DNA of 64,000 nt from NCBI GenBank assembly GCA_965248535.1, contig CBDFJR010000002.1:128001-192000 (forward strand), read 5' to 3'. Shown here one piece after another: positions 3 through 45,137 of the stretch; within the stretch, counting starts at the first letter, position 1, and every line of letters begins with the position of its first letter. The notes under the pieces were generated by a model, which was not told the origin of the DNA, did not search any database, and worked only from the letters and a program-made list of their open reading frames with translations. The position numbers and the translations under genes were made by a program. The DNA comes from Phormidesmis sp. GTDB taxonomy: Bacteria; Cyanobacteriota; Cyanobacteriia; Leptolyngbyales; Leptolyngbyaceae.

Positions 3-410
3 CCGCTTCCCCCGTTTACGTTTGAGACCGCAAAAGCTAAAGTTCAAGCTGCCGAAGATGCCTGGAATACCTGCAATCCCGACAAGGTAGCGCTGGCTTA
101 CACCGAAGATTCGCAGTGGCGCAATCGAGACGAGTTTTTTAGCGGACGAGATGCGATTCGCGAATTTCTTAAGCGCAAGTGGGCAAAAGAATTAGACTAC
201 CGTTTGAAAAAAGAACTCTGGAGCTTCACCGACGATCGCATCTCAGTCTGCTTTCAATATGAGTGGCACGACGATGCAGACAACTGGTATCGCGCCTATG
301 GAAACGAACAGTGGGAGTTTGCTGAAAGTGGCTTGATGCGGCGGCGAGAAGCCAGCATTAATGATGTTGCCATTCAAGAGTCTGAACGCATGTTTCAATG
401 GGAGCGCTAA
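3..410 (+). CDS. DUF1348 / SnoaL-NTF2-like family protein, 5' truncated by window edge
   Basis: Frame open from position 3: [22 protein letters not shown]...WRNRDEF...YEWHD...[12 protein letters not shown]...RREASIND. Confidence 0.85.
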
Positions 411-417
411 TCGGTTG

Positions 418-1503
418 ATGAATAAGAAACTATTGATTACTGAGCTTCAGTCGCAGGGGCTGACGTTAATCGACTCCGAGACTGGAGCATCGGGGCGAAA
501 AGGGGGAGCCGGCCCTTCAGATCACAAAGCGGTGACCGTAGATGGCACAACAATCATGGTGCCGATCTACAACAATGTGGCAGCCCGATCGCCCTACACC
601 ATCCGCAATAGTTCATCAGCAGAGTTGTTGTTAGAACGTTATGGAGAGGCAGTTTCGGCGATTAGCTTTCCGCAACAGCCGCAGTTCTATAATCTCACCA
701 CAACAGACGGCATTCCCTATTGGAAGATTGCTCTGTTGCACAGCCGAGATGTGTTAGCCACCACCGTTATGCAAACCTGCATTCGCTATGGTGACACCGC
801 AACGTCGTGTCAATTTTGCGCGATCGGGCAATCTCTAGACTCTGGCAAAACCATTGCCCGCAAGACTCCGGCTCAACTTGCAGAAGTCGCAGAAGCCGCC
901 GTTCGGCTGGATGGAGTCAAGCATTTAGTGATGACGATCGGCACACCCAACACCCACGATCGCGGAGCCGCTTATCTGATCGACTGTGCTGTTGCGATCA
1001 AAGCTAGAGTTGATCTGCCCATTCAAGCGCAGTGTGAGCCACCTGACGATTTTGCCTGGTTCGATCGCATGAAAACGGCGGGCATCGACAGTTTAGGAAT
1101 GCACTTAGAAGCGGCAGATCCGCAGGTTCGGGCTAAGATTATGCCCGGTAAGGCAACAGTGCCCGTAGAGTATTACTTTGCGGCCTTTGCAGCCGCCGTT
1201 AAGGTGTTTGGCTGGGGACAAGTCAGCACTTATTTACTCGCTGGGTTAGGGGACAGTTTAGAGACTTTGTTGGAAGTCAGCGATCGCTTAATTCAAATCG
1301 GAGTTTATCCGTTTGTGGTGCCGTTTGTTCCCATTACCGGAACTCCATTAGCCCATTATCCTTCCCCCAAAAGTGAATTAATGTTCACTCTCTATGAGCG
1401 CATTGGGGCCCAACTCAAACAAGCCGGAATGTCATCAGCAGATGTGAAAGCCGGGTGTGCAAAGTGTGGGGCCTGTTCAGCAATCTCTAACTTTGAATCT
1501 TGA
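418..1503 (+). CDS. Radical SAM protein, MSMEG_0568 family (Nit1C cluster)
   Basis: RKGGAGPSDH motif, C-x9-C-x2-C (CIRYGDTATSCQFC), C-terminal CAKCGACS; ATG 418 follows the upstream stop at 410. Confidence 0.88.
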   Translation: MNKKLLITELQSQGLTLIDSETGASGRKGGAGPSDHKAVTVDGTTIMVPIYNNVAARSPYTIRNSSSAELLLERYGEAVSAISFPQQPQFYNLTTTDGIPYWKIALLHSRDVLATTVMQTCIRYGDTATSCQFCAIGQSLDSGKTIARKTPAQLAEVAEAAVRLDGVKHLVMTIGTPNTHDRGAAYLIDCAVAIKARVDLPIQAQCEPPDDFAWFDRMKTAGIDSLGMHLEAADPQVRAKIMPGKATVPVEYYFAAFAAAVKVFGWGQVSTYLLAGLGDSLETLLEVSDRLIQIGVYPFVVPFVPITGTPLAHYPSPKSELMFTLYERIGAQLKQAGMSSADVKAGCAKCGACSAISNFES

Positions 1504-3636: not shown

Positions 3637-3921
3637 CGTTCTGCGATCGCAGGCTCTAGATCATGAATCGCGTTTATCTGCCTCAGAAAAAATTCTGGGG
3701 CTTTTTGATGGCGTTTAGTCCGCACCAAACGAGCGCGATCGAGTATCACCCATCTACCTGCTCCAATATTGTCATGACCAGAGTCAAGCATAGACCGACG
3801 TTAGGTAAAATGCAAGTGGCACTTGCAGGCAAAGCTCGAAGTTGGTAGCATAGATGCAATCAGTGCTTGCCTGGTTTTACCGCAACGCCCTGGGAGCTAA
3901 AAATCGAGTCTTTGGAATTTA

Positions 3922-22637: not shown

Positions 22638-22700
22638 AAACTAGTTAGATTGAGACCTGATTTGAGCACTCTAGCCAGAGTCTTAAAAGAATTGGTTGCT

Positions 22701-24110
22701 ATGTCAAAAAACTATCGTCAAGTCCGCAAGTCAACAGTCGTCAAAAACTCCGCTGGTCAGCAATTCCAACTAGGCGGCTATCGCCCCGAAAAGCAGAACT
22801 CTCAAGACAAAAAATACAGTGCGGGTCGCGATCGTTCCCTGCCTTCTAAAGTCGATCTTCGCGCCTACATGACTCCGGTCGAAAATCAGGGCAACTCCAA
22901 TAGCTGCACCGCCAACGCCATGGCAGGGGCCTATGAATATCTGACAAACCGCCTGCTCGGACAATCGGAAGATGTCAGCCGTTTGTTCATCTACTACAAC
23001 GCACGAGAATTTGACGGCGACCCCAGCCAAGACCAAGGCACATATCTGAAAAGCTGCGTCAAAGTGTTGCGAAAATATGGCGCTTGTTCTGAAAACACTT
23101 GGTCGTTTAACCTCGAACAAATTCTAGAGCAGCCGCCTAAAAAGGCTTATGCAGAAGCCACAAACTTCCGAGTTGAAGACGCGGCTCGTGTGGAGGTCGA
23201 TCTTCACGCCATGCGGAGTTGTCTGGCAGAGGGCTATCCGTTTGCGTTTGGCTTGCAGCTTTTCGAGTCTTTTCAGCAGGCAGGCTCTAGCGGATTGGTG
23301 CCCATGCCTGACCCCGATCGCGAAAAGCACGACGGCGGCCACGCGATGCTGTGTGTGGGCTATTCTGACCCTGATCAAGTTTTTATCGTTCGCAATTCAT
23401 GGGGCGATGACTGGGGCGAGCAGGGCTATTGCTACATCCCTTACGACTACATGACCAAGCCTGATTTTAACCACGACTGCTGGACGATTCGCCAAGTCAG
23501 CGATCGTGACCTGAGTCAGGGCATTCAGGGCAGTTCGGCTCCTCTGTTTAGTGGGTCAAAGGCGGCGATCGCGACTGCATTTCAAACCCCCGGCGCAATT
23601 TATCAACCCTCAGTGATCGCCTTGTTAGAAGAGTCTCACTATGAGACTTACACGGTTGAATATGAAGAAGAGCTTGTCTACATCGAAAACCAAGGGTTTG
23701 TCTCCGTCGATGCTTACGAGAACCTCGATTTTCTCTACTTCCAGGAGTATGACGAAACTGAAGAAGAGTCCGACGACAGCGACGAAGACTCTGAATTCTA
23801 CGAGGAGACTGTAACCGAATACGAAGAAGAGTCCGACGACGAAAAGTCCGACGAAGACGACTCTGAAGAAATCGATAACAGCGACGACGAAGAGTCTGAC
23901 GAAGACGACGAAGAGGAAAGCGACGAAGACGAAGAAGATATCGACGCAGAGACTGAAGGCAGCGACGACGAAGAGGATTCTGAAGAAGAGGAAGATCCTG
24001 AAGAGGAAGATCCTGACGAAGAGGCTTCCGAAGAAAGCGACGAAGAAAGCGAAGACAGTTATGAAGAAGAGTCTGAAGAAGATTTAGGAGGCGATGAAGG
24101 CGAAGAGTAG
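22701..24110 (+). CDS. Papain-like C1 cysteine peptidase with very acidic C-terminal tail
   Basis: QGNSNSCTA, GGHAM and IVRNSWG catalytic motifs; last ~120 aa mostly D/E/S. Confidence 0.87.
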   Translation: MSKNYRQVRKSTVVKNSAGQQFQLGGYRPEKQNSQDKKYSAGRDRSLPSKVDLRAYMTPVENQGNSNSCTANAMAGAYEYLTNRLLGQSEDVSRLFIYYNAREFDGDPSQDQGTYLKSCVKVLRKYGACSENTWSFNLEQILEQPPKKAYAEATNFRVEDAARVEVDLHAMRSCLAEGYPFAFGLQLFESFQQAGSSGLVPMPDPDREKHDGGHAMLCVGYSDPDQVFIVRNSWGDDWGEQGYCYIPYDYMTKPDFNHDCWTIRQVSDRDLSQGIQGSSAPLFSGSKAAIATAFQTPGAIYQPSVIALLEESHYETYTVEYEEELVYIENQGFVSVDAYENLDFLYFQEYDETEEESDDSDEDSEFYEETVTEYEEESDDEKSDEDDSEEIDNSDDEESDEDDEEESDEDEEDIDAETEGSDDEEDSEEEEDPEEEDPDEEASEESDEESEDSYEEESEEDLGGDEGEE

Positions 24111-24266: not shown

Positions 24267-25562
24267 TTGATAGAGCGCTATACCCTACCCGAAATGGGCA
24301 ATTTGTGGACTGAAGCCTATAAATTTCAAACCTGGCTAGAGGTTGAGATCGCCGTCTGCGAAGCTCAGGCTGAGTTGGGTTACATTCCGGCTGAGGCCGT
24401 TGCAGACATCAAAGCAAAAGCAACCTTTGACCCCAAACGCATCTTAGAAATCGAGGCCGAAGTTCGGCACGATGTGATTGCGTTTCTCACTAACGTTAAT
24501 GAATCTGTAGGCGAAGCCGGACGATACATCCACTTGGGCATGACCAGTTCTGATGTCCTAGACACCGCCCTGGCACTGCAACTTGTCGCCAGTTTAGATG
24601 TGATTATGTCTCACGTTGAGGCGTTGATTCAGGCACTTCGCTATCAGGCTCAACAGCACCGCAACACCGTCATGATTGGGCGATCGCACGGCATTCACGC
24701 CGAGCCAATCACCTTTGGCTTTAAGCTGGCTGGCTGGCTGGCAGAAATGCTGCGACACCGCGATCGTCTCTGTCAACTCAAAAAAACCATTGCCGTCGGT
24801 CAAATCTCTGGCGCGGTTGGCACCTACGCCAACATTGACCCTCGCATTGAGTCTTTAACCTGTCAAAACCTGGGACTCGAACCCGATGCTGCCTCGACGC
24901 AGGTGATTTCTCGCGATCGCCACGCCGATTATATGAATGGCTTGGCGCTGTTAGCCTCGTCGATCGAGCGTTTTGCCGTAGAAATTCGCAACCTTCAGCG
25001 CACCGATGTTTTAGAAGTTGAAGAGTTTTTCTCAAAGGGACAAAAAGGCTCCTCTGCAATGCCCCATAAGCGGAACCCGATCCGGTCAGAGCGTCTCACC
25101 GGAATGGCTCGTCTCATCCGAGGCTATGCGGTTGCCGCGATGGAAAACGTTGCGCTCTGGCACGAGCGAGATATTTCCCATAGCTCAGTCGAACGGGTGG
25201 CCTTTCCCGATGCCTGCATTTTGACTCACTTCATGTTGGTCGAAACGACTGACTTGGTGAAAAACCTGCTGGTTTACCCCGACAACATGGCGCGCAACAT
25301 GAACCTTTATGGGGGAGTCGTTTTTAGTCAAAGAGTTTTGTTGGCGCTGATTGGCAAAGATGTCAGTCGCGAAGAGGCGTATACGATCGTGCAGTCATGC
25401 GCTCATCAAGCCTGGAACAAACCCGAAGGTGACTTCCGCAAGTTGATTAGTGAAGACCCCCGCGTGGTCGAAAAGCTCTCCCCGGCTGAAATTGCTGATT
25501 GTTTCGATCCTCAACATCATCTCAAAAATCTAGATCAGGTTTATCAACGACTAGGCATTTGA
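24267..25562 (+). CDS. purB: Adenylosuccinate lyase
   Basis: HDVIAF, TSSD, GRSHGIHAEP, GSSAMPHKRNP signature. Confidence 0.96.
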   Translation: MIERYTLPEMGNLWTEAYKFQTWLEVEIAVCEAQAELGYIPAEAVADIKAKATFDPKRILEIEAEVRHDVIAFLTNVNESVGEAGRYIHLGMTSSDVLDTALALQLVASLDVIMSHVEALIQALRYQAQQHRNTVMIGRSHGIHAEPITFGFKLAGWLAEMLRHRDRLCQLKKTIAVGQISGAVGTYANIDPRIESLTCQNLGLEPDAASTQVISRDRHADYMNGLALLASSIERFAVEIRNLQRTDVLEVEEFFSKGQKGSSAMPHKRNPIRSERLTGMARLIRGYAVAAMENVALWHERDISHSSVERVAFPDACILTHFMLVETTDLVKNLLVYPDNMARNMNLYGGVVFSQRVLLALIGKDVSREEAYTIVQSCAHQAWNKPEGDFRKLISEDPRVVEKLSPAEIADCFDPQHHLKNLDQVYQRLGI

Positions 25563-25689
25563 GCTTCTTAGACTCTACTGTTCCATCCAAGGCAGATTCA
25601 CATCGTCAGGCATTCCAATCGGCAAGAAAGATAGTCAACGTAATCAAGTTACTGCACCCTTCTGGAACACAACCGAAAAAGGTTAGCAA

Positions 25690-25839
25690 ATGATGACTAT
25701 ATTGCTTTTGATTGTGTGTTTTGTGGTCACGGTCTTGCTCCTCCTTGGGGTTCTGATCATCGGCATAGGCGTTCACTTCACCCTACAGAACCTTAAAGCG
25801 CCGTTAATTCAAAGAATGGCACGGGTGGTCAGCAAATAA
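25690..25839 (+). CDS. Possible 49-aa single-TM protein
   Basis: MMTILLLIVCFVVTVLLLLGVLIIGIGVHF...; below the ORF-track cutoff, read manually. Confidence 0.35.
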   Translation: MMTILLLIVCFVVTVLLLLGVLIIGIGVHFTLQNLKAPLIQRMARVVSK

Positions 25840-26241
25840 AGAGCGCCAAGTGATGGTTTCAACTGGCTTGGGCACCGTTCCTTTTCCAATATTTTCTGTT
25901 ACTTTTGCCTTCCAAAATAGTTCGCCAGAGAAATTTGAAGTCAGTTCGTCGCAGTATCGGGGCATTCAAGAAGGCAGTTATGGAATCTTTGCCTCCCAAA
26001 GAACCTGGTATAAACGGTTCGATAGTACTGAAGCGTTTCAGTAAGCCCTAGACTTCTGTTTCCCTTTTAGTGGTTGTCTTCTGACCTGCGTTTCTATCTT
26101 TTTTCTACTAGTTTGGTTCGCGATTTATGGAGCAGTTTAATCTTCGTCGGTCGTTGGATGGATTTAATTTAAGTACAGAACAAAAAACTTAGCCTGTGGA
26201 CATACTGCGCTCGCCGACGATCGCACTCACTCTACCCAAAC

Positions 26242-28161
26242 TCACTCCATTCGGGCAAAATGCTCTAGTAGCATCCGATGGACAAAGATATAACCGCCGC
26301 CAACTTTTTGCAGAAAAATGCGCTCACTGGCGTAGTCGAGGAAGCGGGAATAGTCCCAGGGAATACAATTGTTGCGGTGAAGGATGGATCGTAAGATGAA
26401 GTGTTGGAGGCAGGCTTTACCACCTCCAAAAAACAGCCCAAAGATCAGTCCGAAAATTAGCCCCAGTCCCAGCCATTGTAGTTGCCCTAGAAAAATTACA
26501 ATCAGCAAGCCAATTCCTGCGCCTATCATTCCTAAAATAAGGGCGTTTCTAACTGAGTTCCAAATTCCTTGATTAGGAGATGTTTTTCTCTCTATTTTTG
26601 GGCCGATCAGTCCACCTAGCAAGCCCAAAATTAGTCCACTAATTAGCCCATACGCGATTATTAAGATAGGCATGAGTGGTGATAAAAGAGAAATTCCCAC
26701 AATTATTCCCAAAGGCAATCCTCCAAGGAATCCTTGTTTCGCAGACTTTATGGCTTCTTGCCAAGACCATTTCAAGCTTTCATCTTGCCAAGACCATTTC
26801 AACGTTTCAACTGTTTTGATTTCATCCATCCGCCAAGCTAATTTCCATTCCTCCATCTTCCACCAAGCTAAAGGTAGGACGATACTCATTCCAATGATTA
26901 GTCCCTGTAATGGACTCAATACAAAACAACCAATCAGGAAACCCATCATTAACCCCATCAGGCGAGTTCCCCATTCATAGACCTTTTTTTGGGTCGTTTC
27001 TAACCAAGTCGGCTGCATTCCCTCAATAAAAAAGACCGTTTGCGATGCGTGAGACATCCGTTGCGCTAGCCAAGTTAGCCAGTGTATGGACTGACCCTTC
27101 GAGTATTGTTGATTAACTCCCTTTCGCTTGAACATCCGCTCAATATAAGAATTGAATAAGTGTTCACGATGTGCTTCTACTGAACCTGTTTGAAGTATTT
27201 CTTCTACCTTTTTGCCTTGATAAGCCAAAGTCATAACATTAAGCGTTAGAGGAGACTTCGCTAACTCTTGCAGTGCGGTATCTTCGGACAGCAGAGTTTT
27301 GACGGCTTCTAGTTGTTCACCTGCCGCGTCTAAATAGTGGTTAACCTGCTCAGGAGTCAGAGAGCGGATGTAGATCGCGCCCCGTAATTGCAGACGGTTA
27401 GACAGAACTTCATAGTCTGCAATCCGACTACAGACCACTATCTCAGTCTGCCCGTGCGTTTGCATAAACTGGTTGATAGCTTCGACGCAGGCTTCTCGCC
27501 GATCGGACTTTACCTCGTCTAGACCGTCTAGCAGTAGGAGTAGTTGTTGATCTTCAATCCAGGTTTTAGCAAGAGTCTTGGAAACTTTATACTGACTGTA
27601 CAGTTCCTCAATCAGCCAATCTGCGATCGTTTGCCGTTTGCTGCCCCAAGAAGATAAGTTAAACACCACTGGACTCAGCCGACTCAAACCCCCTTCAGCA
27701 CGAGCAATCAAATTCTGTGCCAGTTTTAGGAGGGTTATTGTTTTCCCAGCCCCTGGGTCTCCCAAAATCAACAGAGTTCGCCCCTCTCCGATTTGATTGA
27801 AGACCTCAGTTGCGCCTGTCCCTGAAGGCAAAATTTGTCTGGACTCTTCTGGTAGCTCCTCGAAGCTACTAAATGAACGTTCTATTGCATCCGATCGCTT
27901 TTCTAGACCAAGTTCAATCATTGTCTTGGTGTGCAATGACTTTTCTAAGACCCCTTCAATCCAATAATCTTTGACTTTACTGAGTAAAACTTGCCTCTGG
28001 CGGTATTCTACCTGAGTTAAAGATTGTTCTGCACTGGGTGATTGCCCACTAATTAACTCAGAGACTTGGGAAATGAAGTATTGAGTGACGGCTCCATGAT
28101 TTTCTTGGATAAACCCCTGAACATTTCCGCCAGAGATGTTGACAAAATTATCGGCAGTCAT
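26242..28161 (-). CDS. NACHT NTPase (NLR-like) with N-terminal amyloid-like motif and C-terminal transmembrane repeats
   Basis: Walker A GDPGAGKT, Walker B LLLLDGLDE, CSR, PLTL; Gly/Leu-rich TM repeats; FLDYA....FLQKVGGGYIFVHRML tail. Confidence 0.9.
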   Translation of the reverse strand: MTADNFVNISGGNVQGFIQENHGAVTQYFISQVSELISGQSPSAEQSLTQVEYRQRQVLLSKVKDYWIEGVLEKSLHTKTMIELGLEKRSDAIERSFSSFEELPEESRQILPSGTGATEVFNQIGEGRTLLILGDPGAGKTITLLKLAQNLIARAEGGLSRLSPVVFNLSSWGSKRQTIADWLIEELYSQYKVSKTLAKTWIEDQQLLLLLDGLDEVKSDRREACVEAINQFMQTHGQTEIVVCSRIADYEVLSNRLQLRGAIYIRSLTPEQVNHYLDAAGEQLEAVKTLLSEDTALQELAKSPLTLNVMTLAYQGKKVEEILQTGSVEAHREHLFNSYIERMFKRKGVNQQYSKGQSIHWLTWLAQRMSHASQTVFFIEGMQPTWLETTQKKVYEWGTRLMGLMMGFLIGCFVLSPLQGLIIGMSIVLPLAWWKMEEWKLAWRMDEIKTVETLKWSWQDESLKWSWQEAIKSAKQGFLGGLPLGIIVGISLLSPLMPILIIAYGLISGLILGLLGGLIGPKIERKTSPNQGIWNSVRNALILGMIGAGIGLLIVIFLGQLQWLGLGLIFGLIFGLFFGGGKACLQHFILRSILHRNNCIPWDYSRFLDYASERIFLQKVGGGYIFVHRMLLEHFARME

Positions 28162-28178
28162 TTTCTAAGCGCCCTTGA

Positions 28179-28556
28179 TTAACTGAAGTTTTGAGTTATC
28201 GTCCCAGTATTTTGCTGTGTCAAACCTTGAACTGTACCCCCAGAAATTTGAACACTAAATTTCCCTTCCGCTGCTTCTTGAGGATGTAGTTGTTCCATTA
28301 ACTTTTGAGCCAGTTTAACAATTTCTTCGTCTTTGTCAGCTCCAGCCTCAGTTAATTCATCTTCTAAAAGAGGTCTCGTCTTTTCGGGCTTCTGTTCATA
28401 CTTATCCAGGATAGTAGCTGAATCTGATTTTCCTTGACTCTCAAACTTGTGCTTAATCAAGGCTTTCAAGCCGTTGTAAGCATCTTGAGCGACACCACCA
28501 GCCGTTTTTGCTGCACCAGCTACCAATGCTGCAAGGATAAGAGAAATAGGATCCAT
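28179..28556 (-). CDS. Bell-like helical effector with C-terminal amyloid-like motif
   Basis: MDPISLILAALVAGA...AQDAYNGLKALI N-terminus; C-terminal motif 14/23 identical to the N-terminus of the adjacent NACHT. Confidence 0.8.
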   Translation of the reverse strand: MDPISLILAALVAGAAKTAGGVAQDAYNGLKALIKHKFESQGKSDSATILDKYEQKPEKTRPLLEDELTEAGADKDEEIVKLAQKLMEQLHPQEAAEGKFSVQISGGTVQGLTQQNTGTITQNFS

Positions 28557-28774
28557 AAATTCATCTCCTGAGGTTTAAGTTTTGAGTCAAACCATCTGTT
28601 GCGTTTAAGATAGGACAGGAAAAGAGATAACACTGGAAAGACGCAGATATCGTGATGTTTCTTGATAAACAGATTTGAGTATCAGTGCGATCGCTTTAAC
28701 CAAGAGCTTACGGGGTTTTGGCGATTTCTTCCTACCGATCTCTTCCCGATTGCAGCCTCATCAAGGATTCAGGG

Positions 28775-29560
28775 GCATAACGGCTCAAATCAGCGGCGGC
28801 AGACAATTTCTGTGACTCCACCGAGACCTCGCGCCCTTCCGCTCCAACGTGTTGTGTACGCCCAGCATGGGTGTGAACTAATGGGGTGAAAGTCCCCTGT
28901 CGGAGAACCAACGTCCAAATGATCCCAAAAGATCCGAGTGACGACAACGACTAGCTTAAGGTAAGGGCGTTTCCGCGAGGAAGGGTCTGAAGGAAGCCAG
29001 CGGCAAATCTGCGAGCTGACGGACAGAAACGTCATAGAAGGCTGAGATTCCTGTGGCAAGTGAGCACAACATCATGAAGCCTTTTGGTTCAGGGAACACA
29101 GTAAATGACGCAGTTGTGCAGAGACAGTTCACGTTCTTATCTGGGGAGATCTGCTCAAAGGGCGGTCTGAGGGTCTACGGGAGTCTGATTGAGGTCTAGC
29201 GGGAAACGGCTAGGGAGCCACGGAACCCTAAGGACATTCAGGCAGCGTGAGTCATGGCAACAGGACTCATGATTGAGCAGAAGTCAGCAGAGGTCATAGT
29301 AGCCAAACACTCACCGTAATGGGTGAGACAGGGTGAAGGGCTGAACCTTAGAAAGCAGGGAGGAGTTGCAAAGCTCGACTGGGCGATGAACCCGAACGGG
29401 GGAGCTATTTTGTCGGCGCTTAACTGCACAACCAGCCCTGGATATTCAGTTCTATTGAACTGGCTTGTCTAAAACTTTTCTGGGGACGCGCCCCGTGCGG
29501 AGCCGCACGCGGGGTGCCGTGGGGACTGGGGGAGAAAATCCCCTGGTTACCCGATTATGC
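28775..29560 (-). other. attC site interrupted by a group II intron (86 bp when rejoined: 28775-28855 + 29556-29560)
   Basis: On the cassette strand, rejoined GCATAAC ... GTTATGC with internal AGCGG/CCGCT pairing; starts 4 nt after the dprA stop. Confidence 0.85.
28856..29555 (+). mobile_element. ORF-less group IIC-attC intron, 700 nt
   Basis: 5' GTACGCCCAGCATGGG after exon TTGT; short class-C domain V with CGC triad (~29485-29520); domain VI ending TTACCCGAT; no RT ORF; antisense to cassette genes. Confidence 0.88.
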
Positions 29561-29564
29561 TGTT

Positions 29565-30557
29565 CTACGATGATGCAATAAGACTGAGTTGAACCATCTG
29601 ATTATCTAGAGCCTTGTTCTCATTTACAGAATCACTCCTCTCTAAAATTGAAGTGATTTTTTGAACACCATTTTCCAATGAGATCTCGTGACAGCCTAGT
29701 TGAATTAAGTCCGAATTACCAATTGGGGGTTGTGCCAAGCAGTTTGGTGAGAGAACAAAAACTGGTATGTTCATCGCCATTGCACTTCTAGCAGCATCAA
29801 ACGTGCCACTCATCCTGCCTTTACTATCAATTTCTTGTCCTGAAGCTATAACAACAACTGCATCTGCCAGCGCACAAACCAACTTATTTCGTGCCATAGC
29901 ATTTCGAGCAAGCCACTTTTCTGAAGGGTTGAATTGCGAAAGAACAAGAGTGTTATACGCAGTAAAAAAGGGTTTGAATTCCTTCTTGGCTTCAAAATTT
30001 AGAATGCCTAGACTAAGAATAATCGTAGTAGTACCTTCTGCTTCTAAAGCGCCTAAATGAGCGGCAGAATCAACACCTTTAGCATAACCAGAGACAATAT
30101 TAAACCCTGCTCTAGCTAGTCCCTTTGCTAACTCAGCTGTGATGGCAAGAGCATCTTCACCAACGTTACGCGAACCAACAATTGAAATGCTTGGTGATTT
30201 TGCAAGTGGTGTATGCCCTCTTGCGTACAAGACTGGGGGAATGTTGTATTGCCGCCCATACTTCTTCAGTCTAGAGGGAAAGTCAGGAGATTCAGGATGC
30301 AGAATCTTCACTCTATTTGTCTCTAGCTGTTCGTAAGCGCGTTGAATCAATTCGTAATCCTGTTCATGCGGAAAGGATTTGAGTGTAGTTCTCAGTCTTC
30401 CTGAGATTTTTGGAAAATCTAATTTCCTATTAGTTAGGAAATTGTTAAGATCGGTAGATTCTCCAGATACGAGATCGTGAACTTCCCACAGCAATTTCGT
30501 CCCTATTCCTTTGGCGCGAGCCAACCGAAACCAATCGAAACTGCTGCTGTAAGTCAT
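29565..30557 (-). CDS. DprA/Smf-family protein (ShosA-like)
   Basis: PPVLYARG, SIVGSR, IVSGYAKGVDSAAH, ARNKLV; ATG 30557 overlaps the upstream TGA (ATGA). Confidence 0.87.
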   Translation of the reverse strand: MTYSSSFDWFRLARAKGIGTKLLWEVHDLVSGESTDLNNFLTNRKLDFPKISGRLRTTLKSFPHEQDYELIQRAYEQLETNRVKILHPESPDFPSRLKKYGRQYNIPPVLYARGHTPLAKSPSISIVGSRNVGEDALAITAELAKGLARAGFNIVSGYAKGVDSAAHLGALEAEGTTTIILSLGILNFEAKKEFKPFFTAYNTLVLSQFNPSEKWLARNAMARNKLVCALADAVVVIASGQEIDSKGRMSGTFDAARSAMAMNIPVFVLSPNCLAQPPIGNSDLIQLGCHEISLENGVQKITSILERSDSVNENKALDNQMVQLSLIASS

Positions 30558-31177
30558 CTTTTTGTCCTCGTCATCGTTATCGTTAGCACGTAGACTCTCG
30601 CTACACCCCCCTGGAACGTGAGAGCATTGCACACTGCGTTCAAGGTTTCCCCAGACCTAAAGAGATCGTCAAACACCAAAAGAGACTGCTGAGCGTATCT
30701 TTGGTCAGCGACCTGAAACGCACCTTGCATTTGTTGCTGGCGAATTTCAGCGTCTTCTATATCTTTCAGCGCTTGTGTCTGTCTAACCTTGATGAGGTAA
30801 TCGTCTGGTACAGAAAGCCCAGTCTTCTCCCCGATCGCTTTCGCTAATTCTAACACTGGCTGAAAAGGGCGGTCTAATTTGGATGGTGGAACAGCGACGA
30901 TGCTTTGGAAGTAGCGAAAAACCCTAAAATTATTCCGGATATAATTTGCAGCAATCTCAGCCATTGGCTCGACTTTGCTACGGTCAAAATTATACTTTAG
31001 CTGATAGAGAGCTTCACCCAGTTCAGTACGGGTTGTATCAAACCCTCCATCACTCCGAGAAACGCTCGACACTGTATGTAGATCAAGTGCTACTCCATAA
31101 ATCCACGAACCATTAATAACTCTTGGGTCAATATTCACGGTCGAAGCCCGCCCTATCCCGTCTTGTGAAGCTCTCAT
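30554..31177 (-). CDS. ComF-like phosphoribosyltransferase (ShosT-like)
   Basis: LYQLKY, VPPSK..R.FQP, PRPP loop LVFDDLFRSGETL. Confidence 0.85.
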   Translation of the reverse strand: MRASQDGIGRASTVNIDPRVINGSWIYGVALDLHTVSSVSRSDGGFDTTRTELGEALYQLKYNFDRSKVEPMAEIAANYIRNNFRVFRYFQSIVAVPPSKLDRPFQPVLELAKAIGEKTGLSVPDDYLIKVRQTQALKDIEDAEIRQQQMQGAFQVADQRYAQQSLLVFDDLFRSGETLNAVCNALTFQGGVARVYVLTITMTRTKR

Positions 31178-31242
31178 TTTATCTTGTGTGACTATACCTG
31201 ATTACCAGGCCTAGATTGCCCACAAAATAAAGCGAATGTGCA

Positions 31243-31328
31243 GCCTAACGTTCCCAATCAGCGGCGACAGATATGACTGAAACGAAGTGCAAAGACTTTT
31301 TACGTCCGCTGCATTGGGGTTGTTATGC
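31243..31328 (-). other. attC recombination site (86 bp)
   Basis: Cassette strand: GCATAAC-AACCC-AATGCAGCGG ... CCGCTGATT-GGGAAC-GTTAGGC, 4 nt after the stop at 31333; unpaired base in the L arm. Confidence 0.9.
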
Positions 31329-31332
31329 CGCG

Positions 31333-32466
31333 CTATGGACACGAACTGTTTTTGCCATTAATAGTCCACGTATCGTTAGCGATCCAACCTGTTCGTCCTC
31401 CAGATGTAATTTCAAAATAGCCTTCTGTAGAACCCGCAAATTCTCTTGTCACGTAATCCGAGACCGTATAATTGCCAGAGCTTACCCTGATAAGCTCTTG
31501 ACTGAATCTGTCTGGGGCACTTCTTAAGGAAACCAAAGAATTATTAATTGCTACAACACATCCTGACGAAGCAATAGCTTGCCTCCTAGCTACTTCTGCC
31601 CGTTGACGCGCAAGCTCCTGTTGCCGTGCAAGTTCTTGCTGACGTGCAGCCTCTGCTTGCTGACGTGCAAATTCTCTCTGCCGTTCAGCCTCTTCCTGAG
31701 CAGCACGTTGTCTTGCAGCCTCTTCCTGAGCAGCACGTTGTCTTGCAGCCTCTTCCTGGGCAGCGCGTTGCCGTTCAGCTTCTTCTTGGGCGGCACGTTG
31801 TCTTGCAGCCCCTTGCTCGTCAGTGTTTGAGTTAGGGGGTACAGATGGCTTATTACCTGAACTTGATGGTAGTTGCGGCGAGACAACGGTGTTAGGCTTG
31901 CTAGGCTCTCCAACTTCGCCACCAACAGCTTTAGCAAATTTTAGAGCTTTAGTGTCAGAAATAAAACTTGCGACTAGGACTGCCTTCTCACCTGTTTGCC
32001 TAGTTGCGTTGATGGCATCTTTGCAGTACTTCTGCTTGACTTCATCTAAGTTTCCACCATTTATAAATACTGGATACCAAGTACTGTTGGAATCTGTAGA
32101 CTTATCCCCACAAGAGTCTTGGGGAAACTGAGGTTCACTGAGTTGAGAGTCATTACTCTGTTCAGGCTTTCTATTGATCGGGCTTTGGGTAGGTAACGCA
32201 ATAGCTGACGATTCCTCAGATTTCGGACTGAAAGTCCCAACTACTTTAATTCCAACCTCCCTAGCTCCATAAAGAAAGAGAAAAAGAGGTATTAATGCAA
32301 AAGCAACCTTTCCCCAGTGTCCGTTTCGAGAATTATTGTAGATGTACTGAATATAGTCTCGTCCGACTTGAATTAAATCTCTACCAGCTTGACCTATTTG
32401 TCCTGAATTTTCAGCGTTGTTAAGCTCGATATCCTGATCTACATCATGAGGCTTTTTCTGGCTCAT
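31333..32466 (-). CDS. Membrane-anchored protein: N-terminal SGQIGQAGRDL motif, TM, Cys-paired extracellular domain, coiled-coil repeats, C-terminal SH3b-like domain
   Basis: TM VAFALIPLFLFLYG; FPQDSCGD...YPVF...YCKDA...VASF...GGEVGEP; (AARQRAAQEE)n; VSLRSAP...YFEI....TGWI. Confidence 0.75.
   Translation of the reverse strand: MSQKKPHDVDQDIELNNAENSGQIGQAGRDLIQVGRDYIQYIYNNSRNGHWGKVAFALIPLFLFLYGAREVGIKVVGTFSPKSEESSAIALPTQSPINRKPEQSNDSQLSEPQFPQDSCGDKSTDSNSTWYPVFINGGNLDEVKQKYCKDAINATRQTGEKAVLVASFISDTKALKFAKAVGGEVGEPSKPNTVVSPQLPSSSGNKPSVPPNSNTDEQGAARQRAAQEEAERQRAAQEEAARQRAAQEEAARQRAAQEEAERQREFARQQAEAARQQELARQQELARQRAEVARRQAIASSGCVVAINNSLVSLRSAPDRFSQELIRVSSGNYTVSDYVTREFAGSTEGYFEITSGGRTGWIANDTWTINGKNSSCP
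31680..31811. repeat. 30-bp coding tandem repeat, about 4 units (A[A/E]RQRAAQEE)
   Basis: Repeats of GCAGCACGTTGTCTTGCAGCCTCTTCCTGA with variants. Confidence 0.85.
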
Positions 32467-32489: not shown

Positions 32490-32909
32490 TCAAAGTCCAA
32501 AGAAACTTTTTGCCACACCGAACCAAGGTAGAAGACCTTCAATAATTGGCTTTACCTTTCCAAATAAGCCTTGACCCGCACTAACTGTCTCATCTGCATT
32601 CTTCAAAACTTCAGTAGCCCTCTGCAAGCTAGTTGCTGCAAAATTCTTTTGAGGCTCTTTACTTTCTGCTTCTTCTTTCGCTGTCTCGATATGCCGAATT
32701 GCTTTGCTTTTCTCTGAATCGGACAAGTTTGAACTCCAAATTAATTCCTCAATTTGTGCCAAACCTGCCACTACGTCGGTAGGAGTCAATATTCCCTCAG
32801 TTTTGATCTGGTTCTGGGTCAAATCTCGTCCTGCTTGACCGATTTGTCCTGATACTTGACTACCGCTAATGGAGATGGATTGAGACTGGTAGGGCTTTTC
32901 TCCTGACAT
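32490..32909 (-). CDS. Small helical protein with N-terminal SGQIGQAGRDL motif and amphipathic C-terminus
   Basis: 139 aa; GGAG RBS upstream; ends GLFGKVKPIIEGLLPWFGVAKSFFGL. Confidence 0.78.
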   Translation of the reverse strand: MSGEKPYQSQSISISGSQVSGQIGQAGRDLTQNQIKTEGILTPTDVVAGLAQIEELIWSSNLSDSEKSKAIRHIETAKEEAESKEPQKNFAATSLQRATEVLKNADETVSAGQGLFGKVKPIIEGLLPWFGVAKSFFGL

Positions 32910-33067
32910 AGAACTCCTTATTTTACAACCGAGTAATATGGTCTGCTTCAGTATGCGTAACTTACTTCAGCTCTGACAGTACCCTTGAGGGTACTTTTCT
33001 CTGAAATAACTTGACTCTGGACAACAACAGATAACCTTCCAATTGCGTCCTTACCAAGAACTAAGCG

Positions 33068-33181
33068 GCATAACGATTGAGTTGAACCGCACCAAATCAA
33101 TCAAGCAACACCAACTTTAGTTGGTAGTGCGGTTAACCTTACGACTATTTGTAGCGTGTCGGTTCCAACGAAATGTTCTAC
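33068..33181 (-). other. attC-like site (114 bp) nearest intI
   Basis: Cassette strand: GTAGAAC-5nt-GTTGGAACC ... GGTTCAAC-6nt-GTTATGC, with an extra G in the left arm. Confidence 0.75.
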
Positions 33182-33233
33182 GGAACTGGGTGGATGTAGT
33201 GTTCCCAATGGGTAACATTTATATCCAGTTCTC

Positions 33234-33250: not shown

Positions 33251-33465
33251 ACTGAAAGTTTCTGCCTAAGATCCCAATTTTAACGACTTAGCCTGAGTCT
33301 TTCCGCCCAAGTCCGAATCAAGCGACTTAGCCCGATATGATTTCCGCATAGTACCCCTCGACAGGGATCTTGGGCGGAAATCTTCAGTATTTCTTCCAAG
33401 AGAGAACCTGTTACCGTCCGCCTAAGATCCCGAATGACAGAATTACAGCCTTGGAACTCGCCGGG

Positions 33466-34431
33466 ATGGAACCACGACCCAGAAAGCTGCTCGAACAAGT
33501 CTCTGACCTGTTGCGAGTGAAGCACTATTCATACCGCACCGAGCAGACCTACGTTCAATGGATTCGGCGCTACATCCTGTTTCACAACAAGACCCATCCC
33601 AAAGACATGGGAAGTCCAGAGATTGAAGCCTTTCTAACGCATCTTGCAGTGCAAGAACAAGTGGCGGCATCGACGCAAAACCAAGCCCTCAGCGCCATTT
33701 TGTTCCTCTACCGCGAGGTGCTACGGCAAGAACTAGATGCTTCGATCGATGCTGTTCGAGCCAAGCAACCCCGCTATTTGCCCACGGTCTTGACAAAAGA
33801 TGAAGTCAGAGCCGTCATTGGCAACCTCAGTAGGGTGTATCAACTCGTCGTGCAGGTTCTTTATGGCAGCGGGGTGCGGTTAAACGAAGGATTGAACATC
33901 CGGGTCAAAGACCTCGATTTTGCTCAACAGCAAATCATCGTTCGCACGCCAAAAGGGGTTGAGAGTCGAGTCACGATGCTGCCCACCAGTCTAAACGAAC
34001 CGCTACATGAGCATCTGCAACGGGTACGCCGATTGCACCAGCAAGATTTAGCCCAAGGCTATGGAGCCGTGCATCTGCCGTATGCACTGGCTCGAAAGTA
34101 TCCGAATGCGGAGCGATCGTGGGTATGGCAGTTTGTGTTTCCGTCAGACCGTCGCTGTCGTGACCCTAGAACGGAGCAAATCAATCGCTTTCATCTGCAT
34201 GAAAGCGGAGTGCAGAAAGCCTTGAAGCAAGCCGTGTTTTCCGCAAGGATTCAAAAGCGAGTCGGCTGTCATACCTTTCGCCATAGCTTTGCGACGCATC
34301 TGCTGGAAGCAGGCTATGACATTCGGACGGTTCAAGAACTGCTGGGGCACAAAGATGTGAAAACGACGATGATTTATACTCACGTTCTCAATCGAGGTGG
34401 AAAAGGCGTGCGAAGTCCGCTTGATCCATAG
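33466..34431 (+). CDS. intI: Integron integrase (tyrosine recombinase)
   Basis: [23 protein letters not shown]; integron-specific insertion [12 protein letters not shown]....WQFVFPS; catalytic R (GVRLNE), HTFRH, LLGH, Y (TTMIYTHV). Confidence 0.96.
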
Positions 34432-35946: not shown

Positions 35947-35991
35947 TCGTGTTTCCTTGTTCGCTTAATAATGTCGGGTGGAGGTTCTGAA

Positions 35992-37038
35992 ATGCGTTGG
36001 ATGGTGGCACCGCTTGTAGTGGGGTTGGGGGTTGCTCAGGGTTTGATCGGTGGCATGGTGCTGGTTCCGGGGGCGCAGGCATCAGACCTGAGTGATCAGT
36101 TGAGCATCAAACTCTATAACGGCACTCGCGGCACTGCTCGCACTGAAGCCGATCGCCTCGTGCGGTTGGGCAACCAGCAGAATCAAGCTGGGTTTATAGA
36201 CAAAGCGATCGGGTCTTGGCAGCAGGCGCTAGCCATCTATCACGACATTAAAGAAGTCGAAGCGGAGGGCACGACCTATGAGGCGTTAGGTCAGGCCTAC
36301 TCAAAGGTGGGGCGGTTTGCTGAAGCCGAGGATGCGGTGCGACGCAGCTTGGCGATCGCTCGTGACACTAAAGATTTTCAACGTCAAATCTATGGCTTTA
36401 ATAATTTAGGCACGCTGCTGCTGCGACGATCGAGCGTTGTGGAGGCCCAAAAAACTTTTGCCGAAGGTTTAAAGGTGGCCCAAGACGTGCAAAACCCGGC
36501 TGGGCGGGGCTTATCTCTGAGCAACTTGGGTTTGGTTGCCTATTCGCAGGGCAATTATAAAGAAGCCATTCGCTATTATGAACAGGCAAAACCCTTGCGC
36601 GAACAGGCTAAAGACCCCGGCGTTGCTAACACGCTGAATAATTTGGGCGATGCCTATCGAGCCATTCGCGATTATCGAACGTCTTTGGTCAGCTATCGGC
36701 AGGCGCTGTTTGTGGCTCAAAATAGTCTCGATCGTCCCAATCAATTTCGGGCTTTAGAAGGGCTGACGCGGGCGTTTTATGGGCTGGGTCAAAACTCCAA
36801 CGCTTCAGAAACGCTCGATCAACGATTGGCGCTGGCTCTAGAGCAAAACGATTCTAAACAGGTGATTGCAGCGCTGAAGGGGTTGGCGCAATTCTATACT
36901 GCGAAGGGCGATTGGGTGGCGGCAGATAGCTATTATCAGCAGGCGCTGGCGGTAGCTCAAGGTTTGAATGACACTCAAGAACAGCAGGGATTGTTGACGC
37001 AAATCGGGACGCTGCGATCGCGCAAGTTTACCCAATAG
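35992..37038 (+). CDS. Secreted tetratricopeptide repeat protein
   Basis: Signal peptide; repeated NNLG..Y...G.Y..A..YY.QAL units. Confidence 0.85.
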   Translation: MRWMVAPLVVGLGVAQGLIGGMVLVPGAQASDLSDQLSIKLYNGTRGTARTEADRLVRLGNQQNQAGFIDKAIGSWQQALAIYHDIKEVEAEGTTYEALGQAYSKVGRFAEAEDAVRRSLAIARDTKDFQRQIYGFNNLGTLLLRRSSVVEAQKTFAEGLKVAQDVQNPAGRGLSLSNLGLVAYSQGNYKEAIRYYEQAKPLREQAKDPGVANTLNNLGDAYRAIRDYRTSLVSYRQALFVAQNSLDRPNQFRALEGLTRAFYGLGQNSNASETLDQRLALALEQNDSKQVIAALKGLAQFYTAKGDWVAADSYYQQALAVAQGLNDTQEQQGLLTQIGTLRSRKFTQ

Positions 37039-37152
37039 AGCAAGGGTCGCCCAGTCTTCTCACAAATGCATCTGTGGGTTGAAGAGCAGCAGTAGACTTA
37101 GGGTATAGTGAAACCCATTCGCTGCATTGACTGACCCTGTATTTTAACTGCT

Positions 37153-43217: not shown

Positions 43218-45137
43218 CTATTGAGCATCCCCCCCGATCGGAACTTTCACCAAGTCTAAAAAATTCACTTCACGTTGGTGTCTAAGTTCTTGAATGCGCT
43301 TATATTCCGATTGCCCTTTCTGTTGATAATAGTGACCGAGTTCTGCATTAGTGGCGAGATCAGTTGTTTTCCACAGATCTAAGAAATGACGGCGACGCTT
43401 TTCGCACATGACTTCTTCAATAGCGGCGGCGGCCGATCGGATGCCTAACTCAGCCCGAAGAATGTCACGATCGGTCTTTTCATTGAGTTCAAACAGCGCG
43501 TAGACTTGCGCCATCTCTCGCGGAAAATCGGTGCAGCGATCGCGCAACAGCGACATCAAATCGGGAGTCTGTTGACCTTGAGCAGATTGCTCGACCTCGA
43601 CAATTTGCCGCCACAAAAAGCGGTGATGAGACAGGCTAAATTCTAAATCTTGAGCGTCTAATGCCTCGACGATCGCGCCCCGATGCGACGGGGAATGGAG
43701 ATAGAGTCTGAGCAGCAGCGCTTCCGATTCTTCTAGCAGGGTGCGCTCACCGGGGGTTTGCCATTTTTGCGATCGCCCGTGCCAGCGTTGACCCCGCACT
43801 TGCAGCCGCAGATCTTCTTCGATTTGCTGCATCATGCGACTGTTGCCCTGGCTCAAAAGCTCGGCGCAGTGGTGAATGTAGTGAGTCCGGCTAGTGGGGT
43901 TGGGCAGATTGCCTAACAGCGTCACCATCTCGACGACGACTAACTGAAACTGGTCTGACTGCTTTAAATCTTTGCCAACCAGCGCTTGCTGAATTTGCCA
44001 ATCAATCCACAAAGGCGCATCATCCAGCAGATCTTGATAACTGGCAGCAGAATGGGTTTTGAGAAAATCGTCAGGATCTTTGCCATCGGGAATATTTAAA
44101 ACCCGCAGTTGCACGTCGCCTTGATAGGCTAGAGATGCGACTTCTCCGATCGCTCGCTCGGCCGCTTGCACGCCTGCACGATCGGCATCGAAGTTAAAAA
44201 TAATTCGCTTTGACTCGGTGTAGCGCAACAGTTGCCGCACTTGCCCGATACTCAGCGCCGTTCCTAACGAGGCGACCACATTCGTAATTTTGCCCGCGTG
44301 CAGGGCGATCACATCAAAATATCCCTCCACGACGACCGCTTGATCGGTTTTGGCGATCGTGGCCCGCGCCTTATCCAATCCATAAAGCGTGTTGCCTTTG
44401 TCAAATAACTCCGTCTCAGGCGAGTTGAGATATTTGGGTTGCTCGTCGCTGAGAGTGCGACCGCCAAAGGCAATGACGCGCCCCTGCAAATCGAGAATCG
44501 GAATCATCAAGCGATCGCGGAAGCGATCGTAATAGCCATCTCCGGTTTTGCGCGGCACAATCAACCCGGCTTGTTCTACCAGCGCCACGGGGTAATGCTT
44601 TTGTTCAACCAAATAACCATAGAGCGTTTCCCAACCGCCCGGAGCGTAGCCGAGTTGAAACTGCTGAATGGTGGCTTGATTGAGCTTGCGATCGGTCTGC
44701 AAATAGGCTAGGGCCACTTTTCCATCGTTTTGATTAAGCGCGTGTTCATAAAATCGGGCTGTGATCGCCAAAATCTCATATAGTTGCTCTCGAATGGAGA
44801 GTTGCCGCTGCAATTCTTGCCGTTGTTCAGGTTCTAAGGTTTGGACGGCAACCTGATAGCGCTTGGCTAAATCGAGGACGACCTCACTAAACGATCGCTT
44901 GCCCAACTCCATCAAAAACTTAATCGCGTTGCCGCCTGCCCCGCAGCTAAAGCAATAATAAAACTGCTTACTAGGGCTGACGCTAAAGCTCGGCGATTTG
45001 TCGTCATGAAACGGACACAGCCCCGTGAAGTCTTTGCCCTGTTTTTTAAGCACAACGTGCTCAGAGACAATATCCACAATGTCGAGCCGCTGTTTGACTT
45101 GTTCGATCGTGTCGGGGTGGAGGCGAGGGACGTTCAT
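43218..45137 (-). CDS. dnaG: DNA primase
   Basis: CPFH...CFSC zinc finger, DRFRDRLMIPI, KYLNSPET, VEGYFDV, FDAD.AG, KDPD. Confidence 0.96.
   Translation of the reverse strand: MNVPRLHPDTIEQVKQRLDIVDIVSEHVVLKKQGKDFTGLCPFHDDKSPSFSVSPSKQFYYCFSCGAGGNAIKFLMELGKRSFSEVVLDLAKRYQVAVQTLEPEQRQELQRQLSIREQLYEILAITARFYEHALNQNDGKVALAYLQTDRKLNQATIQQFQLGYAPGGWETLYGYLVEQKHYPVALVEQAGLIVPRKTGDGYYDRFRDRLMIPILDLQGRVIAFGGRTLSDEQPKYLNSPETELFDKGNTLYGLDKARATIAKTDQAVVVEGYFDVIALHAGKITNVVASLGTALSIGQVRQLLRYTESKRIIFNFDADRAGVQAAERAIGEVASLAYQGDVQLRVLNIPDGKDPDDFLKTHSAASYQDLLDDAPLWIDWQIQQALVGKDLKQSDQFQLVVVEMVTLLGNLPNPTSRTHYIHHCAELLSQGNSRMMQQIEEDLRLQVRGQRWHGRSQKWQTPGERTLLEESEALLLRLYLHSPSHRGAIVEALDAQDLEFSLSHHRFLWRQIVEVEQSAQGQQTPDLMSLLRDRCTDFPREMAQVYALFELNEKTDRDILRAELGIRSAAAAIEEVMCEKRRRHFLDLWKTTDLATNAELGHYYQQKGQSEYKRIQELRHQREVNFLDLVKVPIGGDAQ

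Follow-up and report, generated by a model that had tools for sequence, protein, structure and literature searches.

Amyloid-templated signalling from an NLR (NOD-like receptor) to a pore-former is well studied in fungi: in the HET-S/NWD2 system, the N-terminal motif of the NLR templates the amyloid of a HeLo-type pore-former encoded by the adjacent gene. In bacteria, the nearest described arrangement is the Bell-BASS/NLR pair, where a small Bell effector and an NLR share a bacterial amyloid signalling sequence (BASS). In the available text of the Dyrka et al. preprint (bioRxiv 2020.01.06.895854), the Bell domain is a five-helix bundle of ~120–140 amino acids that opens with a hydrophobic helix and bears an acidic residue at position 2 or 3; section 7 of the preprint describes Bell-BASS/NLR pairs as typically collinear with small gaps. 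To judge from the available text of bioRxiv 2024.11.07.622273, experimental demonstration of bacterial amyloid-templated signalling is confined to a non-NLR partner, in the Bab/Agp pair of Escherichia coli ECOR25 (BASS11), an abortive-infection defence whose effector relocates to the cell periphery; no trigger is known for any bacterial BASS-NLR pair in the literature searched. NACHT proteins with transmembrane (TM) regions inserted in the NACHT module are a named category in the available part of the Kibby et al. preprint, whose authors predict that they sense intramembrane or periplasmic signals; no experimental test of this class was found in that part. Two reports (bioRxiv 2024.07.02.601719; PMC12614218) describe stocks of phage-defence genes that lie downstream of intI as attC-bounded cassettes. 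Here we analyse a locus of the cyanobacterium Phormidesmis sp., within a stretch of 64,000 nucleotides (GCA_965248535.1, contig CBDFJR010000002.1, positions 128,001 to 192,000; hereafter the window), where a 125-residue Bell-type effector is encoded next to a 639-residue NACHT protein with which it shares a 23-residue motif, at the end of an integron array. Each element of this locus is known, and their combination with a TM-inserted NACHT protein and carriage by an integron is unremarked in the literature searched.

The window pair resembles the Bell-BASS/NLR pairs of Dyrka et al. in effector layout, in its ~23-residue motif and in the collinear NACHT gene. However, the NLR partners described there are NB-ARC or NACHT proteins with tetratricopeptide repeats (TPR) or WD repeats, whereas the window NACHT protein has no repeats and carries a predicted six-helix insert; transmembrane regions are nowhere mentioned in that preprint (bioRxiv 2020.01.06.895854), and the word ‘integron' does not occur in the amyloid-signalling literature searched. 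Bab/Agp, by the part of its published description available, is alike in its ‘MEPIS'-type first helix, in a C-terminal amyloid motif with four glycines (in BASS11, four short beta-strands are broken by four glycines; bioRxiv 2024.11.07.622273) and in an adjacent partner gene that bears the motif at its N-terminus; yet the Bab domain is shorter (~80 residues), and Bab/Agp lies in a prophage defence hotspot, the window pair in an integron. NWD2 is a soluble NACHT-WD40 protein, in contrast to the NACHT-TM partner found here; moreover, the HRAM motif of HET-S/NWD2 is unrelated in sequence to the window motif, and the fungal system is eukaryotic and serves allorecognition. In the TM-inserted NACHT class, as far as the available text goes, the effectors are fused enzymatic or adaptor domains and amyloid is not mentioned, whereas in the window the effector is separate and linked by the shared motif. 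Finally, the defence cassettes in the available reports come from Proteobacteria, either on mobile integrons or in chromosomal arrays such as those of Vibrio, while the window holds a 2.3-kb two-gene NLR module in a cyanobacterial chromosomal integron, with its 3′ attC lost. From the evidence below we read the pair as a two-gene regulated-cell-death module, abortive-infection in type and Bell/BASS-NLR in kind, with a probability of roughly 0.7.

The C-terminal motif of the effector aligned without gaps to the N-terminal motif of the NACHT protein, with 14 of the 23 residues identical, and in BLASTP of one protein against the other this alignment was the sole match (E=8e-7, for a single comparison). 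As a control for chance, each motif was slid gapless along the 20,192 open reading frames (ORFs) of at least 50 amino acids in the 5.03-Mb genome. The partner scored 14/23, and the next-best ORF reached 9/23 for the effector-side motif and 10/23 for the NLR-side motif. A motif of ~20–25 residues thus stands at the effector C-terminus and the NACHT N-terminus, on the same strand and across a 17-bp gap, which is the pair architecture described for Bell/BASS systems. Both the motif match with its short gap and the pairing of an effector-motif gene with a motif-NACHT gene had been proposed from the sequence in an earlier reading of the locus (the original prediction), and both hold; the second is supported further by the Bell-type hallmarks of the effector given below. 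A promoter and terminator scan of 25500-29000 found three promoter-like sites, versus 3.9 expected, and no terminators. Another ORF of 639 amino acids in the window, at 43218..45137, is a DnaG primase by sequence, and its equal length is a coincidence.

Relatives of the effector were then scored: 254 of 320 candidates matched at E≤0.001, and the organism names were all cyanobacterial among the 120 matches listed. The effector profile is patchy, with matches in 31 of the 401 cyanobacterial genomes sampled. Scanning one genome for each species gave 39 effector loci, with titles that were all cyanobacterial, making 40 places together with the window; excluding two at contig edges (L008 and L044), 38 could be scored for a downstream partner. 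With a shared motif defined as at least 8 of 20 residues between the effector C-terminus and the N-terminus of the downstream ORF, the motif was common to both partners, at the same termini, in 36 of the 38 places, and in the two exceptions (L025 and L027) the effector gene is truncated, to 85 and 93 amino acids. Seven motif classes, assigned by eye by the author of the analysis, were found: ISGGTVQG..., TKNVGIG..., DLRGAKAVQIG..., ISGGVQNVVG..., GGDIKGMVGDG...KGIAGDISGG, FQGEVKGAQVGD and KYAATSGSGNA. For 35 of the 36 loci, the best NLR-side match was confined to the locus's own class. As kinship among loci inflates this per-locus count, a permutation test at class level is fairer: with one representative per class, the true pairing had the top summed identity of all 5,040 permutations. 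These comparisons of sequence indicate that the motif changes together on both partners, in the manner of a specific, co-evolving peptide match, and the motif co-conservation in homologous pairs on which the original prediction hung is present.

The intergenic gap is likewise short among the homologs, at 3–28 bp in 18 of the 19 class A places (the remaining one, L011, has 123 bp), and a spacer like TAATCAAG..CTTAGAAA(A/G)TG is also readable in some of the homologs, L018 and L022 among them. Seven loci seemed to carry a 107-nt insertion in the effector gene, but this was discarded as an artefact, tblastn having also matched the NLR-side motif. Duplication or gene conversion between the neighbouring genes could have left the motif identity as a functionless remnant, as the motif DNA is 69–75% identical over 72–75 nt in three of seven loci examined (L013, L019 and L024); but seven motif classes each matched on both partners across genera, and a motif whose terminal position is kept in 36 of 38 places, leave this explanation with next to no chance of being right.

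In composition, the effector-side motif has 5 Q, 2 N, 4 G, 2 V, 2 I and 5 T, with no K, no P and no charged residue, in line with the published description of BASS as rich in Q, N, G, V and I and poor in K and P. In PMC8086366, Supplementary file 1 includes an entry, ‘>Ccya03_s017', whose 28 residues are the N-terminus of the NACHT protein of Stenomitos frigidus ULC18 (locus L006), and the README of that supplement maps Cya03 to BASS9. The Bell/NLR-derived BASS collection thus already includes the orthologous pair, and to the question of whether the motif family is new the answer is that it is not: the window pair is a genuine one of Bell/BASS type, well conserved and with an ortholog on record. 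The window NLR motif differs at a few positions from Ccya03_s017, its link to BASS9 resting on the Stenomitos ortholog; the effector-side string did not turn up in the portion of the file that was searched. Of the BASS classes, BASS9 has the poorest models (average precision 0.42–0.63), and its other listed members are unlike the window motif, so that the motif may, on sequence grounds, deserve a class of its own. Kinship with BASS3/RHIM through the G-phi-Q-phi-G signature was considered and set aside, since the motif reads G-T-V-Q-G and does not fit.

That the shared motif is a non-amyloid homotypic adaptor, through which a NACHT oligomer would bind and concentrate the effector without cross-beta templating, is compatible with these data in so far as co-variation proves a specific interaction between the partners and not its structural nature, and as the monomer models show plain disorder in both motif regions; adaptor-type effector-associated domains are also described in bacterial NACHT systems in the available text of the Kibby et al. 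preprint. Yet the composition and layout fit BASS, with ~23 residues, four Gly spacing runs rich in V, I, T, Q and N, and no Pro or Lys. In addition, the ortholog's motif is catalogued as BASS9, and BASS1, BASS3 and BASS11 form fibrils according to the available parts of the published work. We consider such an adaptor improbable.

The effector begins MDPISLILAALVAGAAK, a MDPIS start with an acidic residue at position 2, and its residues S5, I7, A10 and L11 are invariant among 31 homologs. A ‘MEPIS' region is common to Bell, Hell, Bab and some antiphage NLRs, according to section 8 of bioRxiv 2024.11.07.622273 in its available text. The AlphaFold2 (AF2) model, built on a 31-sequence alignment, has helices at residues 3–20, 24–40, 44–55, 57–71 and 77–96, with a predicted template-modelling score (pTM) of 0.65 and a mean predicted local distance difference test (pLDDT) of ~85 over residues 1–95; the tail, residues 105–125, is below 50. 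As modelled, the effector fits the text description of a Bell domain in its size, its first helix, its acidic residue and its five predicted helices. Effector homologs carry HetE-N (PF20701) in a precomputed Pfam table, and in the ESM Atlas, 21 of 30 feature hits fell in a HetE-N-carrying cluster set (score 0.96), the nearest clusters being HetE-N. HetE-N is described, in the available part of Kaur et al., as an uncharacterised effector domain that also occurs in fungal HetE proteins; the literature search found no link between HetE-N and Bell. Furthermore, the effector domain is fused N-terminally to TM-WD40 proteins in two other cyanobacteria, which is the position where effector domains sit. 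At these loci (L057 630-2672 and L058 521-2074, both on the minus strand), the Bell-type domain is followed by a linker, one hydrophobic segment and WD40, with no NTPase between.

Several searches on the effector weigh against this assignment. A local Pfam-A scan of the window effector and five homologs, with E up to 10, gave no HetE-N, and a PF20701.3 search of the whole genome misses the effector gene; HetE-N membership hence rests on the precomputed table and the language-model search. PADLOC holds no model for the effector. Foldseek of the effector model against the PDB returned nothing at E≤0.001 (three rows, E>7), and VIA-align over 48,161 representative chains reached at best Z 5.7 with a generic helical protein (2au5_A), which is helical-bundle noise. 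A sequence-profile search of the PDB yielded only a DnaA fragment (E=0.019). In addition, the three Foldseek rows scored Z 2.9 on re-examination, the best 50 VIA rows contained no chain of HeLo, MLKL or Bab, and an NCBIfam scan of the effector was empty or insignificant. The absence of a match among solved structures does not show that the effector fold differs from HeLo, MLKL or Bab.

The partner protein matched Pfam NACHT (PF05729) at residues 128–277 with 39.8 bits against a cut-off of 26.7 (E=5.5e-10), and G137, G139, K140 and T141 of Walker A together with D212-E216 of Walker B are invariant in 35 aligned sequences. Its AF2 model (pLDDT 71, pTM 0.63) has a disordered N-terminus (residues 1–45, pLDDT<50), followed by an alpha/beta nucleotide-binding domain, a helical domain, six long helices and three short C-terminal helices. 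The six long helices, at residues 389–414, 417–434, 467–491, 497–519, 533–558 and 561–578 in the model and in agreement with hydropathy, form the membrane block. This block is the least conserved part of the protein, with a mean identity of 0.36 to 34 homologs versus 0.67–0.78 elsewhere, and it is followed by a segment that ends ...GGGYIFVHRMLLEHFARME, in which H587, L590, R591 and other positions are invariant and H628 and R629 nearly invariant across 35 sequences.

In Foldseek, the best matches of the NACHT model were animal NLRs (NLRC4, E=1.1e-7). VIA-align superposed the model on NLRC4 (4kxf) with Z 21.9 and a root-mean-square deviation of 4.4 over 331 residues, covering residues 47..639 of the model and 93..456 of the chain; for NLRP3 and NOD2, Z was 19–20, with ranges that end at model residue 639 and inside the NACHT modules of the targets. 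As the aligned ranges run to residue 639 and yet end inside the animal NACHT modules, the last 55–60 residues belong to the NACHT module. The model places this C-terminal segment most likely as the rest of the winged-helix domain, and by the same model the membrane block interrupts the NACHT module and is not a C-terminal sensor. The conserved C-terminal His presumably corresponds to the nucleotide-contacting His of animal NLRs. No repeat family was among the Pfam matches of the protein, which has none of the C-terminal TPR, WD40 or leucine-rich repeats by which an NLR is strictly defined; it is a NACHT-TM protein and not a NACHT-repeat NLR. The original prediction had the protein embedded in the membrane, which hydropathy and the modelled helices bear out; its ending in transmembrane Gly/Leu repeats was wrong, given the conserved soluble segment of 55–60 residues after the block, and its view of the membrane part as a replacement of C-terminal TPR or WD40 is corrected by VIA-align and the homolog alignment to an insertion.

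The loops at 414/417, 491/497 and 558/561 are 2–5 residues long, and the longer loops (435–466 and 520–532) are rich in Lys and Arg and hold conserved motifs; we infer from this three hairpins with both parts of the NACHT module on the cytoplasmic side. Hydropathy was examined in 11 class A loci (the sample excludes L012-14, L018, L019, L022 and L024), and a multi-segment block after about residue 388 was present in 10 of them, the exception being a truncated ORF of 323 amino acids (L010). The 15 downstream ORFs examined from classes other than ISGG and TKNV had no or one hydrophobic segment. Relatives of ~900 amino acids carry an additional C-terminal DUF3365 domain flanked by further hydrophobic segments, and other NACHT relatives have different N-terminal motifs, a zinc ribbon or a CHAT domain. 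Within the NACHT gene, a 27-nt tandem duplication (26756-26809, minus strand; 93% identical) encodes LKWSWQDES and LKWSWQEAI in the long cytoplasmic loop of the membrane block; among the 35 aligned sequences, this extra nine-residue loop unit occurs elsewhere only in P0123.

A mechanism can be proposed for the Bell/BASS-NLR module. The NACHT protein, an NTPase of the STAND (signal transduction ATPases with numerous domains) type, is held in the cytoplasmic membrane by about six helices, which come after its helical domain and before the terminal portion of its winged-helix domain. Once triggered, it would open, exchange nucleotide and oligomerise, as NLRs are established to do. The disordered N-terminal Gly/Gln/Asn-rich motifs of 23 residues, now clustered, might then adopt a cross-beta fold, which would template the near-identical C-terminal motif of the effector encoded in the same operon, on the model of HET-S/NWD2 and Bab/Agp. 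Once converted, the tail would free the hydrophobic MDPIS helix for insertion into the membrane and killing of the cell. The module travels as an integron cassette.

For the trigger, the likeliest input site is the membrane block, because it is the sole non-NACHT part of the protein besides the motif, is the most variable part and adjoins the His-Arg of the winged-helix segment. Counting against a sensory block, the predicted periplasmic turns are only 2–5 residues in the model, which leaves no obvious external ligand site, so that the block could be a mere anchor. Pair and motif coupling would then work as proposed, with the block placing oligomer and effector at the membrane and the trigger sensed elsewhere, for example by the linker and helix at residues 31–115, by nucleotide state or by a phage protein that binds the NACHT core. 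The short turns at 414/417, 491/497 and 558/561 suit such an anchor, as do the low conservation of the TM helices (0.36), also expected of weakly constrained anchors, and the location of the conserved motifs EIKT.ETL.W.W and PNQGIW in cytoplasmic loops and not in helices. However, six helices inside a NACHT module far exceed what an anchor needs, and the insertion adjoins the conserved His-Arg segment, which matches the terminal part of animal NACHT modules in the alignments; DUF3365 between extra hydrophobic segments in relatives suggests envelope sensing, and the NACHT protein has no other candidate sensor domain. A pure anchor is accordingly a serious possibility that we still hold to be somewhat unlikely.

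A sensory role of the block can be stated more fully. The six-helix bundle might sense a phage-induced disturbance of the membrane (candidates are genome injection, holin or superinfection proteins, depolarisation and lipid changes), upon which the bundle would shift and draw the His-Arg winged-helix segment away from the nucleotide site, the protein would oligomerise within the membrane, and an amyloid relay would reach the pore-former; the SGQIGQAGRDL pair of the same array (see below) would form a parallel channel without cross-seeding. We offer this chain tentatively, as unlikely to be right throughout. If true, it would amount to a self-contained circuit from membrane integrity to amyloid to pore, moved among cyanobacteria by integrons. 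With the membrane block inside NACHT as the sole candidate input, the pair could serve as a tractable model of membrane-bound NLR switching, and the seven co-varying motif classes suit swap experiments, which could make it a model of how motif specificity is kept.

The integron setting given in the original prediction, with the pair at the end of an array, is confirmed by an IntI with Pfam domains Phage_integrase and Phage_int_SAM_4 and by attC sites. These sites were scored with a covariance model (R1) built from 13 attC-like sites of the same genome, which show compensatory arm changes. Directly upstream of the pair lies a partial attC that covers model positions 22–107, with its recombination core GTTATGC at 28782..28788, and its missing 5′ part is occupied by a group II intron (Rfam RF02001 at 28969-29135, 127.8 bits, and RF01998 at 29246-29341, 63.7 bits). 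A weak R1 site was seen at 33064-33197 (18.9 bits). No 3′ attC was detected downstream of the NACHT gene with filters off (best R1 score 4.8 bits, E=4.3). In Stenomitos frigidus, by contrast, the orthologous pair is attC-bounded, in L006 at 589-694 and 3753-3859 (63.6 bits) and in L009 at 7429-7535 (58.7 bits), and the homology of the window to these loci stops ~20 nt past the stop codon, where their attC begins. The order of the array is attI, SGQIGQAGRDL pair, attC, PsyrTA/ShosTA-like pair, intron-split attC and the pair of Bell effector and NACHT-TM protein, followed by a convergent purB. The cassette genes are all on the minus strand, downstream of intI, attC-bounded and in one orientation. 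The pair closes a defence-rich array of three cassettes, and its 3′ attC has been lost in this genome. The cassette is compact, at 2.3 kb and two genes, and widespread in cyanobacteria, and it adds NLR-type death modules to integron cargo outside Proteobacteria.

A cassette that lacks a 3′ attC and is fixed beside a housekeeping gene could also serve something other than defence against viruses: a death switch for stress (membrane or photosynthetic damage) or kin, or an addiction module that stabilises the array. The literature, in its available parts, ties Bell domains to multicellularity rather than to phages. Both neighbouring cassettes match anti-phage models (PsyrTA/ShosTA and PDC-M14B), though, and the patchy distribution and the cassette-borne ortholog are both typical of defence genes; the sole tested Bell-related pair is, by the available text, an abortive-infection system. 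We therefore judge a non-antiviral role to be decidedly doubtful. The parts of the locus are collected in Table 1.

Table 1. Features of the Bell/NACHT pair and of the integron array, in positions of the 64,000-nucleotide window.
Feature	Position	Strand	Basis or remark
Bell-type small effector gene, 125 amino acids	28179..28556	-	ORF
Effector residues 1-20 (MDPISLILAALVAGAAKTAG), N-terminal hydrophobic helix, predicted membrane-inserting element	28497..28556	-	
Effector-side motif, residues 102-124 (VQISGGTVQGLTQQNTGTITQNF)	28185..28253	-	
Intergenic spacer between effector and NACHT genes, 17 bp	28162..28178	-	
NACHT NTPase gene, 639 amino acids; N-terminal motif and predicted internal six-helix membrane block	26242..28161	-	ORF
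NLR-side motif, residues 7-29 (VNISGGNVQGFIQENHGAVTQYF)	28075..28143	-	inside disordered N-terminus
NACHT nucleotide-binding domain, residues 128-277; Walker A GDPGAGKT 134-141, Walker B DGLDE 212-216	27331..27780	-	
Membrane block, residues 389-578	26428..26997	-	hydropathy and AF2 helices
Conserved soluble C-terminal segment, residues 581-639 (..IPWDYSRFLDYASERIFLQKVGGGYIFVHRMLLEHFARME)	26245..26421	-	mean identity 0.71
Partial attC, directly upstream of the pair	28771..28855	-	R1 28.8 bits, E=1.9e-5, 8.6-kb search
ORF-less group II intron inside attC, opposite strand to cassettes	~28806..29560	+	boundaries approximate, by eye
Second cassette: DprA-like and phosphoribosyltransferase (PRTase)-like pair, PsyrTA/ShosTA-like	29565..30632 and 30554..31177	-	PADLOC, Pfam DNA_processg_A
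Complete attC between cassettes 1 and 2	31239..31344	-	R1 101.5 bits (site in training set); paired arms visible
First cassette: 139- and 377-residue proteins, SGQIGQAGRDL near both N-termini	32490..32909 and 31333..32466	-	
Integron integrase IntI	33370..34431	+	TIGR02249, 467.6 bits against cut-off 265; divergent from array

In the second cassette, PADLOC identified PsyrA (E=5.5e-53) and PsyrT (E=1.3e-16), with weaker matches to ShosA and ShosT; PsyrTA/ShosTA-type pairs are a known toxin-antitoxin-type antiphage system. The first cassette holds the second motif pair that had been named in the original prediction, and this pair exists, on the minus strand. Its 139-residue protein matches PDC-M14B of PADLOC (E=3.1e-9); the domain ends in a conserved hydrophobic helix (..PWFGVAKSFFGL), has 257 representatives and also occurs, preceded by the motif, as a C-terminal fusion to CHAT, TIR and pentapeptide-TM modules. 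The 377-residue protein is a single-pass membrane protein with a repeat of Ala, Gln, Glu and Arg. The SGQIGQAGRDL core is the N-terminal motif of NACHT-TM homologs elsewhere (P0193), and the two window motifs, that of the Bell/NACHT pair and that around SGQIGQAGRDL, coincide at 9 of 23 positions. Occurrence of SGQIGQAGRDL in NACHT-TM homologs and in these fusions makes a second motif channel plausible, as judged from these sequences.

The attC arms on the two sides of the intron resemble different attC subtypes, and three further attC sites of the genome border on the same intron end. The difference between the arms suggests that the Bell/NACHT cassette may have joined the array through recombination between intron copies. 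Stretches of ~45 nt after the GTTATGC cores of the intron-split attC (28734-28782) and of the attI-side site (33027-33075) are 71% alike, so that a similar leader opens the first and the third cassette.

Around 20 further attC-like sites, some of them clustered, lie far from the window IntI, no search for other integrases elsewhere in the genome having been made; they include ~1133980-1136944, 1282028, 1340894 and 1669527 on C2, and ~353162-358241, 792342-793580, 937191, 1066355-1067151 and 1693069 on C5, and three of the ~20 carry the end of the window intron. Outside the array, a papain-family Peptidase_C1 protein with an Asp/Glu-rich C-terminal tail of ~130 residues is encoded at 22650-24110 (plus strand). 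Beyond intI, at 35971-39415 (plus strand), TPR proteins and a KAP/ATPase_2-like P-loop protein possibly form a further conflict system.

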